IMG/VR virus record: IMGVR_UViG_2521172733_000017
Origin: a virus
Lineage: Duplodnaviria > Heunggongvirae > Uroviricota > Caudoviricetes
Length of the DNA stretch: 18,058 nt
Direction: 5' to 3' (one strand)
Below the pieces are notes generated by a model. That model was not told the DNA's origin and did not search any database. It saw nothing but the letters and a program-made list of their open reading frames with translations. The translations under genes and the position numbers were made by a program. This document shows, piece after piece, positions 2,769 to 17,143 of the stretch (positions are counted from its first letter, which is position 1; every line of letters begins with the position of its first letter).

Positions 2769-3665
2769 ATGCCTGCTGTTGATCTTTCCCAGTTACCGGA
2801 ACCCGCCATCATCGCGGAGCCTGATTTTGAGGCAATTCTGGCTGACACAAAGGCCATGATGATTGCGTCCTATCCTGCCGAACAGCGTGAAGCCGTCTCC
2901 GCCGCGCTGGAGCTGGAATCAGAACCCCTGAACGTTATCGCTCAAACCATGTCGTTTCGTGAAATGCTGTTACGCCAGCGGGTTAACGAGGGCGCACGCG
3001 CCTGCATGTTAAGCCACGGTTCAGGGACAAACCTGGACAACCTCGCGGGCAATATGAACACAAAGCGCCTGGTTATCACTCCGGCAACGGATACCACCGA
3101 CGCGGTGATGGAGAGCGACACCTCGCTGAGACTGCGGGCGCAGCGGGCGTATGACGGCCTGAGTGTTGCTGGCCCGTCAGGTGCATACGAGTATTTTGCA
3201 CGCAGCGCCAGCGGTCTGGTGCGTGATGCGCGGGCCATCAGCCCGTCTCCGGCCTGTGTGACGGTTTCCATTCTGTCCACTGAAGGCGACGGCACAGCAA
3301 CGGAGGCGTTGCTTAATACCGTTCGCGCCGTTCTGAATGCAGAGGATACCCGCCCGGTGGCCGACCGACTGACCGTACAGAGCGCCAGCATCGTGACATG
3401 GCGGCTGAATGCAAAACTGTACTTTTACCCCGGCCCGGAATCCGAACCTATTCTGGCTGCGGCTGAATCGTCGTTCAGGAAGTGGCTGGCTGAGCAGGGG
3501 CTTATTGGTCAGGACGTGGCGTTGTCAGCCATTGCTGCCGCACTTCATGTGCACGGCGTGCAACGCGTGGAGATAATCGAACCCACACAGAATATGGCCA
3601 TCAGCGACATACAGGCGGCGCGCTGTGAGTCATTCACCATCAGCGAAGGTGGGCGTAATGAGTAA
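2769..3665 (+). CDS. J: Baseplate assembly protein J
   Basis: 298 aa (P2 gpJ is about 300 aa); position after W; RBS-spaced ATG 3 bp after the W stop. Confidence 0.8.
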   Translation: MPAVDLSQLPEPAIIAEPDFEAILADTKAMMIASYPAEQREAVSAALELESEPLNVIAQTMSFREMLLRQRVNEGARACMLSHGSGTNLDNLAGNMNTKRLVITPATDTTDAVMESDTSLRLRAQRAYDGLSVAGPSGAYEYFARSASGLVRDARAISPSPACVTVSILSTEGDGTATEALLNTVRAVLNAEDTRPVADRLTVQSASIVTWRLNAKLYFYPGPESEPILAAAESSFRKWLAEQGLIGQDVALSAIAAALHVHGVQRVEIIEPTQNMAISDIQAARCESFTISEGGRNE

Positions 3666-4188
3666 TTCACTGTTACCGCCATCAGCCAGCAATTTCATGC
3701 GTTGCGCCGAAGCTGTCGGAGCGCGCATTACAGACATCCCGGTAGACCTCAACACGCTGTGGTCACCGGACACCTGCCCGGTGCATCTGCTGCCTTATCT
3801 CGCCTGGGCATTTTCCGTTGACCGCTGGGATCGCAACTGGCCGGAAGAGACAAAGCGACAGGTGATTCGTGATGCCTGGCTGATACACCGACACAAAGGG
3901 ACCATCAGCGCACTGCGCCGGGCCATTGAGCCGCTGGGATACCTCATTCGCGTGTCTGAGTGGTGGGAATTCGGCGGAGAACCGGGAACATTTACTGTTG
4001 AAGTCGGCACGCTGGACAGTGGCGTGACGGAGGAAATGTATCTGGAAATGGAGCGGTTGATTGCTGATGCCCGCCCGGTCAGCCGCCACATGACAGGGCT
4101 GAATATCATTCAGGAAATTCCGGGGGATATTTTCGCAGCGGCGGCAACTTATGACGGTGAAGTTATTACCATTTATCCAGGCGATTAA
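3658..4188 (+). CDS. I: Tail protein I (baseplate)
   Basis: ATG at 3658 overlaps the J stop (ATGAGTAA), giving 176 aa, the P2 gpI length; directly precedes the tail fibre gene. The track ORF starts at GTG 3625. Confidence 0.8.
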   Translation: MSNSLLPPSASNFMRCAEAVGARITDIPVDLNTLWSPDTCPVHLLPYLAWAFSVDRWDRNWPEETKRQVIRDAWLIHRHKGTISALRRAIEPLGYLIRVSEWWEFGGEPGTFTVEVGTLDSGVTEEMYLEMERLIADARPVSRHMTGLNIIQEIPGDIFAAAATYDGEVITIYPGD

Positions 4189-4190
4189 GC

Positions 4191-6077
4191 ATGAGTACCA
4201 CAACACGAAAATTTAAAACCGTTATCACCGATACGGGTGCAAAAAAATTAGCTCAGGCAGCCGCGCCAGATGGTAAGCCTGTCCGCCTGACTCATATGGC
4301 CGTGGGCGACGGTGGCGGCACGTTGCCCACACCAGACAGTAAGCAGACCCGTCTGGTGCATGAGGTGTGGCGACACACTGTTAATCGCGTCATCCTGGAC
4401 GCAACACATCAGAACCGCATTATTGCGGAGCTGGTTATTCCTCCTGAAACGGGCGGATTCTGGATCCGGGAAATTGGTGTATTTGATGAGCACGGCGATT
4501 TAATCGCGGCGGGCAATACTGCCGAAAGTTACAAGCCAGCCGTTGCCGAAGGGTCCGGTCGTGCACAAACATTTCGCACCATTCTGACCGTATCCAGCAC
4601 TGCCACCGTGGCGCTTACCGTGGATAACACCATGGTGATGGCCACAGTGGATTACGTGGATGACAAACTGAAAGAGCATGAACAGTCACGACGTCACCCG
4701 GACGCCTCGCTGACCGCAAAAGGCTTTGTTCAACTCAGTAGTGCCACCAACAGCACGTCTGAAACACTGGCCGCGACATCGAAAGCGGTTAAGGCGGTAA
4801 TGGATGAAACGAACAAGAAAGCCCCATTAAACAGCCCGGCACTGACCGGAACGCCAACAACGCCAACTGCGCGACAGGGAACGAATAATACCCAAATCGC
4901 AAGCACGGCTTTCGTTATGGCTGCGATTGCCGCCCTTGTAGATTCGTCACCTGACGCACTGAATACGCTGAACGAGTTAGCGGCGGCGCTGGGAAACGAC
5001 CCGAATTTTGCGACCACCATGACTAACGCGCTTGCGGGTAAGCAACCGAAAGATGCCACCCTGACGGCGCTGGCCGGGCTTGCTACTGCGGCAGACAAGT
5101 TTCCGTATTTTACGGGGAATGATGTCGCCAGCCTGGCAACCCTGACAAAAGTCGGGCGGGATATTCTTGCGAAATCGACCGTTGCTGCCGTTATCGAATA
5201 CCTCGGTTTACAGGAAATGGTAAACAGGGCTGGTAACGCCGTGCAAAAAAATGGCGATACTTTGTCCGGTGGGCTTACTTTTGAAAATGACTCAATCCTT
5301 GCCTGGATTCGAAATACTGACTGGGCGAAGATTGGATTTAAAAATGATGCCGATGGTGACACTGATTCATACATGTGGTTTGAAACAGGCGACAACGGCA
5401 ATGAATATTTCAAATGGAGAAGCAAACAAAGCACCACAACAAAAGACCTGATGACGCTGAAATGGGATGCGCTAAATATTCTTGTTAATGCCGTCATTAA
5501 TGGCAGCCTTGGAGTTGGTACGACGAATGCGTTAGGTGGTAGCTCTATTGTTCTTGGTGATAATGATACCGGATTTAAACAGAATGGAGACGGTATTCTT
5601 GATGTTTATGCTAATAGTCAGCGTGTATTCCGCTTTCAGAATGGAGTGGCTATTGCTTTTAAAAATATTCAGGCTGGGGATGGTAAAAAATTCACGCTAT
5701 CCAGCTCCAACAACTCCACGAAGAACGTAGGGTTTAATTTATGGGGCGCTTCATCAAGACCAACTGTTGCAGAGCTTGGTGATGATTCAGGCTGGCATTT
5801 CTATAGTCAGCGAAATACAGATAACTCGGTGATATTTGCTGTAAACGGTCAGATACAACCCAGCAACTGGGGGAATTTTGATTCACGCTATGTGAGAGAT
5901 GTCAGACTTGGCACGCGTGTTGTTCAAACTATGCAAAGAGGCGTGATGTATGAAAAATCAGGCCATGCAATTACGGGGCTTGGCATTGTCGGCGAAGTTG
6001 ATGGCGATGATCCGGCTGTGTTCAGACCAATACAAAAATACATCAATGGCACATGGTATAACGTTGCACAGGTATAA
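4191..6077 (+). CDS. H: Tail fibre protein H: constant N-terminal part plus currently expressed variable C-terminal part
   Basis: 628 aa; N-terminal region with IAELVIPPETGGFW and the repeated QLSSATNSTSETLAAT motif, and C-terminus YINGTWYNVAQV, resemble P2 gpH as recalled; the gix-like crossover site lies in-frame at 5191-5216. Confidence 0.9.
   Translation: MSTTTRKFKTVITDTGAKKLAQAAAPDGKPVRLTHMAVGDGGGTLPTPDSKQTRLVHEVWRHTVNRVILDATHQNRIIAELVIPPETGGFWIREIGVFDEHGDLIAAGNTAESYKPAVAEGSGRAQTFRTILTVSSTATVALTVDNTMVMATVDYVDDKLKEHEQSRRHPDASLTAKGFVQLSSATNSTSETLAATSKAVKAVMDETNKKAPLNSPALTGTPTTPTARQGTNNTQIASTAFVMAAIAALVDSSPDALNTLNELAAALGNDPNFATTMTNALAGKQPKDATLTALAGLATAADKFPYFTGNDVASLATLTKVGRDILAKSTVAAVIEYLGLQEMVNRAGNAVQKNGDTLSGGLTFENDSILAWIRNTDWAKIGFKNDADGDTDSYMWFETGDNGNEYFKWRSKQSTTTKDLMTLKWDALNILVNAVINGSLGVGTTNALGGSSIVLGDNDTGFKQNGDGILDVYANSQRVFRFQNGVAIAFKNIQAGDGKKFTLSSSNNSTKNVGFNLWGASSRPTVAELGDDSGWHFYSQRNTDNSVIFAVNGQIQPSNWGNFDSRYVRDVRLGTRVVQTMQRGVMYEKSGHAITGLGIVGEVDGDDPAVFRPIQKYINGTWYNVAQV
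5191..5216. repeat. gix/hix-like recombination site (left inverted repeat) TTATCGAATACCTCGGTTTACAGGAA inside H
   Basis: Matches 21 of 26 positions with the reverse complement of the site at 7869-7894; strongly resembles Mu gixL (TTATCCAAAACCTCGGTTTACAGGAA) as recalled. Confidence 0.8.
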
Positions 6078-14147: not shown

Positions 14148-14304
14148 AGCTCCAGCCCCTTGTATCCGTTAAATGATTCAGCAACAATCATCACCCACCA
14201 CGCGCGTAATCTCACCCCTGCGCCGTTCTCCCGCCACGGCGACAACAAAAAGCAGTAACCCCTTCCGCACGCACATGCGACCATGCCGCACAGGGAGGGA
14301 ACAG

Positions 14305-15413
14305 ATGACCGACACCACCATGCAATTGCTCAGCCAGGGCACTTACCCCGTGAAAATGCCGGATTTTGATATTCTCGCCGAGGGTAAAACGCTGTCCGGC
14401 GTGGCAGACCGCCTGATGAACCTGTCACTGACCGACAACCGGGGATTTGAGGCGGACCAGCTCACCATCACGCTGGATGATGCGGATGGTCAGTTGCAGC
14501 TACCGCCACGGGGCGCGCGCCTGACGGTTCTCATTGGCTGGAAAGGAGAACCGCTGACAGAAAAAGGCACTTACATTGTTGATGAAATCGCTCACGAAGG
14601 ACCGCCGGACAGGCTGACTGTTTCAGCCAGAAGCGCAGATTTTCGGGATGAATTTAACGTTAAACGTGAGGTGTCCTGGCATGATGTGACCGTTGAGCGC
14701 GTGGTATCTGCCATCGCTCATCGGTACGGTCTGAAACCGCAAATCAGCGAAATGCTGATGGATATCGAAATCGACCACGCCGACCAGACCGAAGAAAGCG
14801 ATATGTCCTTCCTTACGCGCATGGCGGAAATGCTGGGCGCAATCACCACGGTAAAAAGCGGCAATCTGTTATTCATCATGCCAGGTGGTGGCGTGAACGC
14901 ACAGGGCCAGCCGTTGCCCTCGTTCGCCATTACACGCAGCAGCGGCGATCGCCATCAGTTCCGTATTGCTGACCGCGAGGCGTATACGGGGGTACGCGCC
15001 TACTGGCTTGATCTTAATTACGGGAAAAAGAAAAAGTCAGCGTGAAACGCCGTAAACCACCAAAACCCAAAAAGGAGAAAAGCAGCAGCCGTGAAGGTGA
15101 TTATATGGAAGGCGCGGAAGGCAATGTGTTTGTGTTACGCAAGACTTATCAGAACGAGCAGGCAGCAAGACGCGCAGCGGCGGCAAAGTGGCAGCAGCTA
15201 CAACGCGGAGCCGCATCATTCTCCATCACGCTGGCATGTGGTCGTGCAGAACTCTACCCCGAAATGCATGGCACGGTAACAGGATTTAAAAGCGAGATTG
15301 ATAATCAGGACTGGATTATTGCAAAAGCCGAGCACACCATCGATAACAGCGGCTTTACCACGCAGCTTGAGCTTGAGGCAAAAATCTCGGAATGGATAGC
15401 AGAAACAGAGTGA
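14305..15413 (+). pseudogene. D: Tail protein D (P2 gpD, late control D family) split by a frameshift in an A-rich tract (segments 14305-15045 and 15042-15413)
   Basis: N-terminal segment carries LSLTDNRGFEADQL and SWHD motifs of gpD; the C-terminal part continues in the -1 frame (...GAASFSITLACGRAELYPE..., SGFTT) after the Lys-rich linker; frame break at gggaaaaagaaaaag (15022-15036); RBS GGGAGGG before ATG 14305. Confidence 0.75.
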
Positions 15414-15455
15414 GCAACTTAGAATAGCAGCAGCACCACGTTAAGGGAGGTCGCT

Positions 15456-15716
15456 ATGTTCCGTTGTCCGCTTTGTGGCGCATCTGCCCGTATCCGCACC
15501 AGTCGTCCTGAAAATGATTCAAACACCGTGCGGCAAAAGTATTACCAGTGTAACAACCTGGAATGCGGCGTATGCTTCTCAACACTGGAAGCTTTCCATA
15601 AATTCACATCAAAACACGCCTCCGGCGTTCACTCTTCAGAAGGTATCCCGTGGCATGAGCTGCCAGCTTCACACAGGGGAAACAATCAGATGAGTTTGCC
15701 TTTACCTCAGAATTAA
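15456..15716 (+). CDS. ogr: Ogr/Delta-family zinc-finger late-gene transcription activator
   Basis: 86 aa; MFRCPLCGASARIRTSR...YYQCNNLECGVCF carries the Cys-x2-Cys...Cys-x4-Cys finger and resembles P2 Ogr; AAGGGAGG RBS; positioned after D at the prophage right end as in P2. Confidence 0.85.
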   Translation: MFRCPLCGASARIRTSRPENDSNTVRQKYYQCNNLECGVCFSTLEAFHKFTSKHASGVHSSEGIPWHELPASHRGNNQMSLPLPQN

Positions 15717-15725
15717 CAGGCAGAA

Positions 15726-15754
15726 TTGCCGGAGTAACAAAAAAGCGATAGATT
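15726..15754 (+). promoter_or_regulatory. Candidate sigma70 promoter (TTGCCG, 17-bp spacer, TAGATT) for the hok-like transcript
   Basis: Good -35/-10 hexamers with 17-bp spacing about 150 nt upstream of the hok-like ORF; predicted transcript to the terminator at about 16168 would be roughly 400 nt, typical of hok mRNAs. Confidence 0.4.
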
Positions 15755-15907
15755 ACGCGCGGGTGCCTTTCGGCTGATGGTCGGAGGGAATACCCGAAGG
15801 CCAGATGTGGAAAGGCCCCGGAAAACATTTCTGTTTAACCGAGGCCCTAACATATCTACCTTAAGCAAGTGATAGGTTAGCGCCTCTCCAACAAAGGAGC
15901 AAGCGCT

Positions 15908-16048
15908 ATGTCGCAAAAATCGCTTACGGCCATCACGTTCTGCGTGACGGTAATCCTCATCATCTGGATGCTACACGGTTCGCTGTGTGAAATACGGATG
16001 AGCTTCTGGGGAGCGGAGTTTGCGGCGTTCTTACAGTGTAAGCAGTAA
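15908..16048 (+). CDS. Hok/Gef-family type I toxin-antitoxin toxin (small membrane peptide), HokA-like
   Basis: 46-aa ORF below the track's size cutoff: MSQKSLTAITFCVTVILIIWMLHGSLCEIRMSFWGAEFAAFLQCKQ; hydrophobic transmembrane helix followed by the SLCEIR...E-AAFL-C motif of Hok-family toxins (compare HokA ...DSLCELHIKQESYELAAFLACKLKE as recalled); AGGAG RBS 8 nt upstream. Confidence 0.65.
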   Translation: MSQKSLTAITFCVTVILIIWMLHGSLCEIRMSFWGAEFAAFLQCKQ

Positions 16049-16136
16049 GGAAACCGCGACGGGGGAGCAATCCCCCGTCAATCGGTTGCTAAGGTTGGCT
16101 GAAGTGGCACCCTATCTCACAGACATGAACAACAAA

Positions 16137-16168
16137 CCCGCAGCGTAAGAACTGCGGGTTTTCTTTTT
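16137..16168 (+). terminator. Rho-independent terminator (CCCGCAG-loop-CTGCGGG then TTTTCTTTTT) ending the hok-like transcript
   Basis: 7-bp GC-rich stem, 8-nt loop and T-rich tail on the + strand; an additional perfect 9-bp hairpin (GACGGGGGA-GCAA-TCCCCCGTC) lies at 16058-16079. Confidence 0.6.
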
Positions 16169-16251
16169 GGAACTATCACTAGCTAGTGTACCGTTAACGG
16201 CACATAATGCTCGCACAACAAACCTGTTAAAAGAGATTACTCAGCATTCTC

Positions 16252-16518
16252 CTACTTCCATTGCCGGATCATTTCATCGGTAACATCACCCTCATAACAT
16301 ACCACGTCATACCCTCCATTACGGCTATATGCACTGCGTCCACCACATCTACTACCATTCCTTGCATGATTATAAGGACACGCACAATTGCCTGGATAAG
16401 ATTCAATGGATTCTTTAATTATTTCTTTTTTGATCTGAGCATCAGACTTTCCTGTTGCTGCATATCCGCTAAAAGATACTAAACAAAGGCAGATTGCCAT
16501 TAATAAACCACATCGCAT
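16252..16518 (-). CDS. Small secreted Cys-containing protein of unknown function (orphan gene in an AT-rich islet)
   Basis: Starting at the internal ATG (16516-16518) gives 88 aa with a signal-peptide-like N-terminus MRCGLLMAICLCLVSFSGYAATG and a mature part with 4 Cys (CACPY...RCGGRSAYSRNGGYDVVCYEG); the track's 38-residue upstream extension is unlikely to be translated. Confidence 0.5.
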   Translation of the reverse strand: MRCGLLMAICLCLVSFSGYAATGKSDAQIKKEIIKESIESYPGNCACPYNHARNGSRCGGRSAYSRNGGYDVVCYEGDVTDEMIRQWK

Positions 16519-16736
16519 ACCGATACACTCTATTACTAACCAATCATAGTCCACATCATAAAATCGAGATGAGGAGTACAATACCTTTAACAAGAAGGTG
16601 TCATAACGATAATATGTCGTGCAATTCATCAAAAAAAAGATCTATATCAAAGAGATAGAACTCTTATCAGTGCTTCAGACATCGGCATTCGAGGCAGCAG
16701 AAAAACAGTAAATCTGACGAATTTGCCTTTTCCCAA

Positions 16737-16904
16737 GATGTTGTCAGATTAAAAAGATAGATTAGCGCAGGTACCTGTTGGTGGATTGCAGGAGGAAAAA
16801 TGAAGTCGAGTGGAAAAATCCCAGAAAAATTTTTGTTTAACAGAGGTCCTGGTTCACTATGCGAAATACGGAGGAGCTGCAGAAGAATTCTGCTTCATCC
16901 TTAG
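16737..16904 (+). pseudogene. Decayed paralogous copy of the hok-like locus (promoter-like region, leader and fused 34-codon ORF retaining ...GSLCEIR...)
   Basis: Segments homologous to 15726-15760, 15805-15850 and 15977-16005 of the intact locus are present in the same order but with an internal deletion of about 120-130 bp that removes the Hok transmembrane region; a GGAGG RBS precedes ATG 16800. Confidence 0.5.
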
Positions 16905-16985
16905 AGTTTAAACAGCACGTGCACTACCATTGTTTCTGCATATCGCCACACCATCGCCACTCAACCGCCATTGCACAAAATACAA

Positions 16986-17013
16986 ATACAAAAAAACCAC
17001 CCGAAGGTGGTTT
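16986..17013 (-). terminator. Rho-independent terminator downstream of tRNA-Leu (stem CCACC/GGTGG, then a T-run on the - strand)
   Basis: On the - strand: GAAACCACCTTCGGGTGGTTTTTTTGTATTT, a hairpin followed by 7-8 T residues, about 45 nt 3' of the tRNA-Leu end. Confidence 0.7.
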
Positions 17014-17056
17014 CACGACACTGCTTATTGCTTTGATTTTATTCTTATCTTTCCCA

Positions 17057-17143
17057 TGGTACCCGGAGCGGGACTTGAACCCGCACAGCGCGAACGCCGA
17101 GGGATTTTAAATCCCTTGTGTCTACCGATTCCACCATCCGGGC
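17057..17143 (-). tRNA. leuZ: tRNA-Leu (anticodon UAA), 87 nt with long variable arm
   Basis: Reverse complement matches E. coli leuZ as recalled (GCCCGGATGGTGGAATCGGTAGACACAAGGGATTTAAAATCCC...GGGTTCAAGTCCCGCTCCGGGTACCA); encoded CCA end. Confidence 0.9.

Follow-up and report, generated by a model that had tools for sequence, protein, structure and literature searches.

Does the DNA downstream of an intact hok toxin locus hold the remains of a second such locus and, if so, does that second copy belong to the phage and retain any function? The question arises in an 18,058-nucleotide stretch of viral DNA (hereafter the window), for which a preliminary description had proposed a second, decayed hok copy in tandem with the intact one. 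The alignments and lesions reported here bear that proposal out, and the segment 16711/16751-16915 is very probably the functionless remnant of a second type I hok/sok locus, lying in the cargo region of a P88-like prophage at leuZ. Throughout, we refer to the intact locus as copy A (hokA) and to the relic as copy B (hokB).

Common descent of the two copies is carried by two blocks of similarity, each of which was scored against 300 dinucleotide-preserving shuffles. The 5′ block pairs 15740-15848 of copy A with 16751-16850 of copy B at a local score of 64 (shuffles 20.2±2.0, maximum 29), and the 3′ block pairs 15977-16004 (Hok codons 24-33) with 16851-16878 at 24/28 identical positions and a score of 36 (shuffles 16.4±2.2, maximum 24). 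With both scores well over the shuffle maxima, chance similarity of the two copies is rejected and copy B is a hok/sok locus by descent. Pairwise alignment—the check that the preliminary description had suggested—thus places the resemblance above chance, and the three blocks named there as homologous to the intact locus all hold, in the same order and orientation. On the plus strand, the 5′ block (16751-16850) retains a −10 hexamer (TAGATT, 16758-16763), a degenerate tac element (AGGTACC vs GGGTGCC in hokA) and a leader with a GGAGG-ATG start; the 3′ block, taken to its full extent (16851-16915, also plus strand), covers Hok codons 24-46, beginning GSLCEIR and continuing, past a 4-nt deletion, as AEEFCFILRV in another frame.

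Between these blocks exactly 128 nt of copy A (15849-15976) are absent from copy B, where the junction falls at 16850/16851 (plus strand) in the local and six-way alignments alike. The loss had been estimated at about 120-130 bp over the toxin start and transmembrane helix, and this was accurate: the deleted segment held the sok promoter homologue, the hok Shine-Dalgarno sequence and ATG, and Hok codons 1-23 with the transmembrane helix. As had also been described, the leader frame is now joined to the toxin C-terminus at GSLCEIR. The junction is identical in 17/17 relic haplotypes, and a deletion common to all of them implies a single inactivation that predates their divergence. The six-way alignment (hokA, copy B, the intact Salmonella loci S1 and S2, a truncated Salmonella locus and a Stx-phage hok) finds the 128-nt segment missing in copy B alone, fbi and the terminator likewise missing in copy B alone, and copy B the most divergent of all hok units compared.

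The edges of the relic are less sharply drawn. Downstream, 16891-16915 matches the last Hok codons (16021-16045) at 18/25 positions (p ~0.05 taken alone); the match requires the 4-nt deletion, which is why AEEFCFILRV is out of frame with GSLCEIR. The hokA 3′ untranslated region (fbi and terminator) has no similarity anywhere in copy B. Upstream, 16711-16738 (plus strand) is a probable fragment of the ogr 3′ end, 79% identical to 15684-15711 and collinear with the blocks; with a score of 26, no higher than the top one among 300 shuffles, it is borderline by itself. Comparison with the Salmonella ogr added no support (130/500 shuffles scored as high), and a tblastn search with the ogr-like C-terminal peptide found nothing.

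Copy A, against which these losses are read, encodes a 46-aa toxin (15908-16048, plus strand) recognised by Pfam HOK_GEF (30.1 bits, cutoff 22) and by phrog_251 (E 2.5e-23; labelled “MokW-like host killing”) and annotated as Hok/Gef (WP_000078920.1). Its mRNA (15761-16165, plus strand) opens with tac (GGGUGCC, 15761-15767), which pairs with fbi (GGCACCC, 16106-16112) in the closure expected for hok mRNAs, and ends at a terminator (16134-16161), where a scan also found a terminator-like site. This RNA folds with its 5′ and 3′ ends paired at a minimum free energy of −178.1 kcal/mol (z = −8.1 vs shuffles), and the Rfam sok model (RF01794) matches 15761-15918 at 47.9 bits (E 5.9e-9), under its gathering score of 59. 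A putative hokA promoter can be read from the sequence at 15726-15755 (plus strand; TTGCCG at 15726-15731, 17 nt, TAGATT at 15750-15755), just upstream of tac and of the start of the sok-model match at 15761; the promoter scan, which required 9/12 matches, did not list it. For the antisense gene, mutation inactivated the −10 of sokW, which primers YO-421 and YO-597 place at GGCTAACC (PMC8621323), and by analogy with the sokW −10 region of that promoter-less mutant we infer a sokA promoter at 15874-15902 (minus strand). It would comprise a −10 TAACCT (complement 15874-15879) and, 17 nt upstream, a −35 TTGCTC (complement 15897-15902); the six-way alignment has AGGTTAGCG kept in all four intact loci.

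Whether the second copy belongs to the phage depends on where the inserted element ends. Over 15400-17060 the window is 100% identical to Escherichia coli O111:H21 strain 15A and 99.8% identical to strain 55989, and it represents the right end of a P88-like prophage (P2-family, Xuanwuvirus type) with tail genes, gene D and ogr, followed 3′ of the prophage end by the tRNA genes leuZ-cysT-glyW and then pgsA. The late-gene activator ogr (15456-15716, plus strand; Pfam Ogr_Delta 52.4 bits; present in the RefSeq annotation of 55989; 98% identical to phage P88) is the last conserved late gene. Strain 55989 carries the prophage between yecA and leuZ, and its attL duplicates the 124 nt that correspond to window 16988-17111 (the att identity block; also locus L006, 4028-4152), which take in the terminator of the leuZ operon and the 3′ half of the tRNA gene. 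The integration target is leuZ itself, a tRNA-Leu(UAA) gene on the minus strand at 17057-17143 (ARAGORN; Rfam tRNA), and as the long repeat carries its 3′ half, the tRNA is restored by the phage upon integration. At the empty site yecA is joined directly to the att block and the sequence left of the block is absent, and only from ~16986-16988 onwards does the window carry sequence shared by 5,425 of 5,426 complete E. coli genomes. Together, these boundaries assign everything to the left, both hok copies included, to the inserted element: hokA, the relic and the small gene between them all lie within the att-bounded element, between ogr and attP. The IMG/VR prophage contigs, for their part, end 125-126 nt into the att block. 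The phage-side arm of attP (P arm, 16918-16987) is missing from the empty site and partly similar to the arm of a Salmonella leuZ prophage (score 28 vs shuffles 16.2±2.6). An Rfam sroD-like match at 16990-17073 (E 0.88) was discarded as noise over the leuZ trailer.

Two features of this prophage end deserve mention apart from the hok loci. Gene D (late control/tail protein, 14305-15413) has suffered a 1-nt deletion in an A run (window 15025-15045; GAAAAAG here vs GAAAAAAG in O145:H28 strain 16003) that splits it into ORFs 14173-15045 and 15042-15413; the RefSeq annotation of strain 55989 has a shortened D gene, and the prophage carried here is probably tail-defective. Insertion sequences also recur at this end in other strains (locus L004, 2308-3577; L009, 603-1300; L011, 748-1445; L012, 1714-2927). 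O157:H7 carries an IS30, with ogr and hokA lost and the small gene and relic remaining; elsewhere IS1 sits beside the relic region or within it, the relic is split by an IS3-family element, and IS600 occurs as well.

The gene between the two copies (16252-16533, minus strand; GC 0.35-0.44) was originally taken for an orphan; it belongs instead to a widespread family (phrog_27544, E 3e-54) with 235 homologues, among them representatives in Salmonella, Oxalobacter and Pseudomonas. Its product (WP_001303543.1) is a small secreted, cysteine-rich protein of 93 aa with a signal-peptide-like N-terminus. One relative (74%) lies beside an A-type hok on another contig, one (82%) beside a copper-ATPase gene, and one (68%) at the same pgsA-tRNA site in Salmonella enterica, and the family recurs as att-proximal cargo in P88-like prophages.

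In other P88-like phages, ogr-hokA gives way to unrelated cargo, beyond which lie the attP and int of each phage. After hokA, P88 carries a hypothetical gene, Chuche carries com and a methyltransferase, and both Shae_phiSM and 500465-2 carry TagO-like genes. More broadly, the interval from the hokA terminator to attP/int behaves as a variable cargo slot (locus L133, 3375-4317; L134, 3411-4641; L135, 3564-5721; L136, 3390-4620; L002, 2504-2746) occupied by com with a DNA methyltransferase, by zinc-ribbon/TagO-like pairs or by hypothetical genes, and on the left its breakpoints gather where the hok mRNA ends (window ~16120-16170). No second hok was present in the other P88-like phages compared (P88, Chuche, Shae_phiSM, 500465-2), which identifies the relic as part of the leuZ integration module.

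These comparisons also weigh on the possibility that the relic is left over from an older leuZ element outside the current prophage, with one copy chromosomal and the other phage-borne. That reading, which we regard as unlikely, draws on the fact that homology to sequenced P88-like phages stops just past the hokA terminator (the 98% match to P88 spans ogr and hok and ends at 16168) and that no isolated phage record contains 16170-16990. However, no att copy separates the relic from hokA in the window, the entire segment is flanked by the 124-nt att duplication, copy A, the small gene, copy B and att occur together on prophage contigs of many samples with their haplotypes co-diverging, and other P88-like phages have variable phage cargo following hokA. 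The relic thus lies in the cargo region of one element, between its ogr-hokA end and its att repeat.

If the relic is phage-borne, is it maintained? Of 5,426 complete E. coli genomes, 643 have it, in every case at the leuZ site and at 85-100% identity; this share of ~11% takes in O157:H7, O145, O111 and strain 55989. The region is 286-289 nt long in all 643 except where cut by an insertion sequence, and ~30 IMG/VR contigs share the order hokA, small gene, relic, att. Pairwise divergence reaches 17.8%, yet the architecture is one and the same throughout. RefSeq contains no annotation of the relic.

We aligned 23 distinct ogr-to-leuZ haplotypes. Nucleotide diversity (π) was 0.006 in the hokA coding sequence, 0.026 in that of the small gene, 0.088-0.101 across the relic and 0.129 in the spacer after hokA. 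Taken whole, the relic (π 0.091) is on a par with ogr at third codon positions (0.079) and more diverse than the small gene at such positions (0.057). Of 107 alignment columns at which all four intact loci agree, copy B has changed at 25, with 16 GC→AT changes vs 8 in the AT→GC direction, and its GC content is ~0.40 vs ~0.50 in hokA. Disabling lesions, a neutral rate, no codon periodicity and further haplotype-specific lesions are what a pseudogene or neutral relic displays. As the relic drifts like junk DNA, it reads, on these sequence comparisons, as an ordinary hok/sok pseudogene, previously unannotated and evidently drifting neutrally. The intact paralogue is more variable in its own leader (π 0.054) and 3′ untranslated region (0.107) than in its nearly invariant coding sequence (third codon positions 0.013), a contrast that points to strong constraint acting on coding RNA and peptide alike, or else to this piece having recently swept or recombined.

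Useless DNA is usually lost from phage genomes, which are compact. The relic, despite its divergence, has never been seen deleted in this lineage (~640 E. coli genomes and ~30 IMG/VR contigs), and its retention could therefore hint at a role that is independent of sequence or confined to short motifs, e.g., spacing of the attP arm. The corresponding explanation holds that the segment is kept as part of the functional left arm of attP, supplying integrase arm sites, IHF sites or spacing, and that its hok ancestry is incidental. Its placement, ending ~70 nt from the att identity block, and the lack of any deletion fit this idea, but the related P arm in Salmonella is directly preceded by a homologue of the small gene with no hok relic, homology between the E. 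coli and Salmonella arms begins only at ~16918-16938, and the relic evolves at a neutral rate, with indels. We judge such an arm function quite improbable.

Could the relic instead act as RNA? Its −10 hexamer survives, but TTGTCA, the closest hexamer of −35 type, sits just 11 nt from TAGATT, so that the hok −35 is lost at its proper spacing, and a consensus scan found no promoter-like site on either strand. Rfam, the sok model included, gave no match in the relic at E<=1, and the relic RNA folds no better than shuffles on the plus (z +0.07) or minus strand (z +0.35), against −8.1 for hokA mRNA. The relic holds neither a Hok/Gef toxin ORF (PF01848, ~46-52 aa with an N-terminal transmembrane helix) nor a structured mRNA with tac/fbi pairing and a terminator; nor does it hold an antisense Sok gene with its own promoter, the −10/−35 homologue having lain inside the deleted 128 nt. 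As for a mok-type leader frame coupled to hok, the GGAGG-ATG and 10 codons are conserved, but beyond them the frame varies by haplotype, and there is no hok start left for coupling. The relic thus appears to be without toxin, antitoxin or activity, the loss of its promoter being judged from the consensus scan and homology.

These observations leave very little probability that the relic still regulates as an RNA element devoid of toxin, whether as a leader decoy that titrates Sok or as an orphan Sok-like antitoxin. Such an element would make sense of the retained Sok-target part of the leader (16797-16850, equivalent to 15795-15848), of an SD-ATG conserved in all haplotypes and of persistence in every member of the lineage. 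Against it, the leader is only ~75% identical to hokA, so that pairing with SokA would be poor, substitutions accumulate at a neutral rate and are evenly spread, and excess RNA structure is lacking on either strand. The orphan sok in particular is rejected: the homologue of the sok promoter is gone, the promoter scan was negative, and the RNA has no excess structure. A narrower version, in which the relic leader RNA with its SD-ATG and Sok-target-like sequence is kept as a target mimic that sponges Sok-type antisense RNAs, is slimmer still in its chances; were it true, the mimic would tune HokA release at prophage induction or disarm the hok/sok antitoxin of competing phages or plasmids. Little scope is left for the relic to serve in spacing or in the attP arm, or to act as an RNA decoy, neither of which the present data support.

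Finally, the deletion left an open reading frame (16800-16904, plus strand) that reads MKSSGKIPEKFLFNRGPGSLCEIRRSCRRILLHP, with GGAGG five nt before its ATG. The preliminary description was right that this 34-codon frame and its ribosome-binding site are present; the frame is unconserved across the 17 relic haplotypes, whose three products are mutually incompatible (34 aa, 13 aa or, in another frame, 36 aa). Specifically, the GGAGG-ATG and the first 10 codons are the same in all haplotypes, after which those at 86% identity stop after 13 codons and those at 93% run for 36 codons in the other frame. That the frame is a real small-protein gene, a neofunctionalised Mok-Hok fusion, has next to no probability, for its good GGAGG-N5-ATG and the 34 codons open in the window haplotype and its close relatives are set against those haplotype-specific products, equal diversity at the three codon positions (0.095/0.099/0.110), the loss of the Hok transmembrane helix, and the lack of any Pfam or PHROG match (vs 30.1 bits for HokA, cutoff 22). 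A functional fusion peptide is effectively refuted by the haplotype comparison; the fused frame is an accidental by-product of the deletion and should not be called as a gene in annotation.

How might a decayed hok/sok locus have come to lie beyond the cargo gene? A tandem duplication of the segment running from the ogr 3′ end through hok, followed by insertion of the cargo, is one candidate route. Alternatively, illegitimate recombination may have joined an end of the type ogrA-hokA-cargo to the end of another P2-like phage, of the type ogrB (3′ end)-hokB-attP. The ogr-like fragment before copy B, and the position of copy B as the most divergent unit compared, weakly favour recombination over tandem duplication as the origin. 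By either route, copy B would then have been inactivated once, before the haplotypes diverged, and would have drifted since with an A/T bias.

An intact relative of copy B was sought widely. A blastn search of phage records (“distant” setting) returned no match, the 5,426 complete E. coli genomes contain only the same relic and no intact copy B, and among plasmid records only two E. coli entries, filed as very large plasmids, matched, both with the same relic. All real matches of the IMG/VR pattern scans were of copy A, the small gene and the copy B relic (a 14-base pattern gave mostly random matches), and the GTDB species representatives, reached via Ogr, offered five loci with A-type hok only. 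Literature searches on leuZ with a P2-like prophage, or on hok with P2-like phages, found nothing specific.

On its own the relic matters little, being one more decayed hok locus, hitherto unannotated. It is of use in two ways: beside an extremely conserved paralogue it provides a handy yardstick of the neutral rate (π 0.091 vs 0.006 in the hokA coding sequence), and it marks the ogr-attP junction of leuZ-integrating P2-like phages as a site of hok duplication, truncation and cargo interleaving.

That E. coli carries decayed hok loci is decades-old knowledge. Work by Pedersen and Gerdes in 1999 is said to have described hokA, hokB, hokC/gef, hokD/relF and hokE of E. coli K-12 as inactivated loci, reportedly disabled by deletions, rearrangements, point mutations or insertion sequences and inactive in post-segregational killing; from hokD/relF, too, the upstream mok/sok part is absent. 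Like the relic, the K-12 loci keep partial leader and toxin sequence. The relic differs from them in its lesion, an internal 128-nt deletion that removed the sok promoter and toxin N-terminus together, plus loss of the 3′ untranslated region, and in its location in a P2-like prophage beside an intact paralogue rather than at a chromosomal hok site.

In organisation, copy A resembles both hok/sok of plasmid R1 and hokW-sokW of the Stx2 prophage Sp5 (Takada et al., 2021; PMC8621323). All three combine an antisense-targeted leader, an antisense −10 of the form TAACC(A/T), a Hok/Gef toxin and tac/fbi end pairing, with toxin lengths of 46 aa for HokA vs 51 aa for HokW (PMC8621323) and 52 aa for Hok. 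The relic descends from a locus of this hok/sok type but is without its toxin frame, its antisense promoter and its structured mRNA.

The closest parallel is a Salmonella enterica leuZ prophage (locus L160, GCA_042149745.1) in which ogr is followed by two hok genes, a hok leader with 7 codons, a homologue of the small gene, the P arm and leuZ. Specifically, within 3340-4505 of that locus two hok genes are intact (3713-3853 and 4211-4351), and a third unit (~3340-3518) breaks off after 7 codons, where the 3′ end of the small-gene homologue cuts into it; this truncated unit is 94% identical to the first, which on sequence grounds suggests a recent tandem duplication. The Salmonella prophage is thus like ours in its site (pgsA-glyW-cysT-leuZ), in the order of its region (gpD-ogr-hok, then the small-gene homologue and att) and in having more than one hok unit, one of them truncated. 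It differs in that its truncated unit, a leader with 7 codons, lies on the ogr side of the small-gene homologue, whereas the E. coli relic, a leader with the toxin C-terminus, lies on the leuZ side. With two intact units and one truncated unit in Salmonella, hok duplication and truncation recur at this junction.
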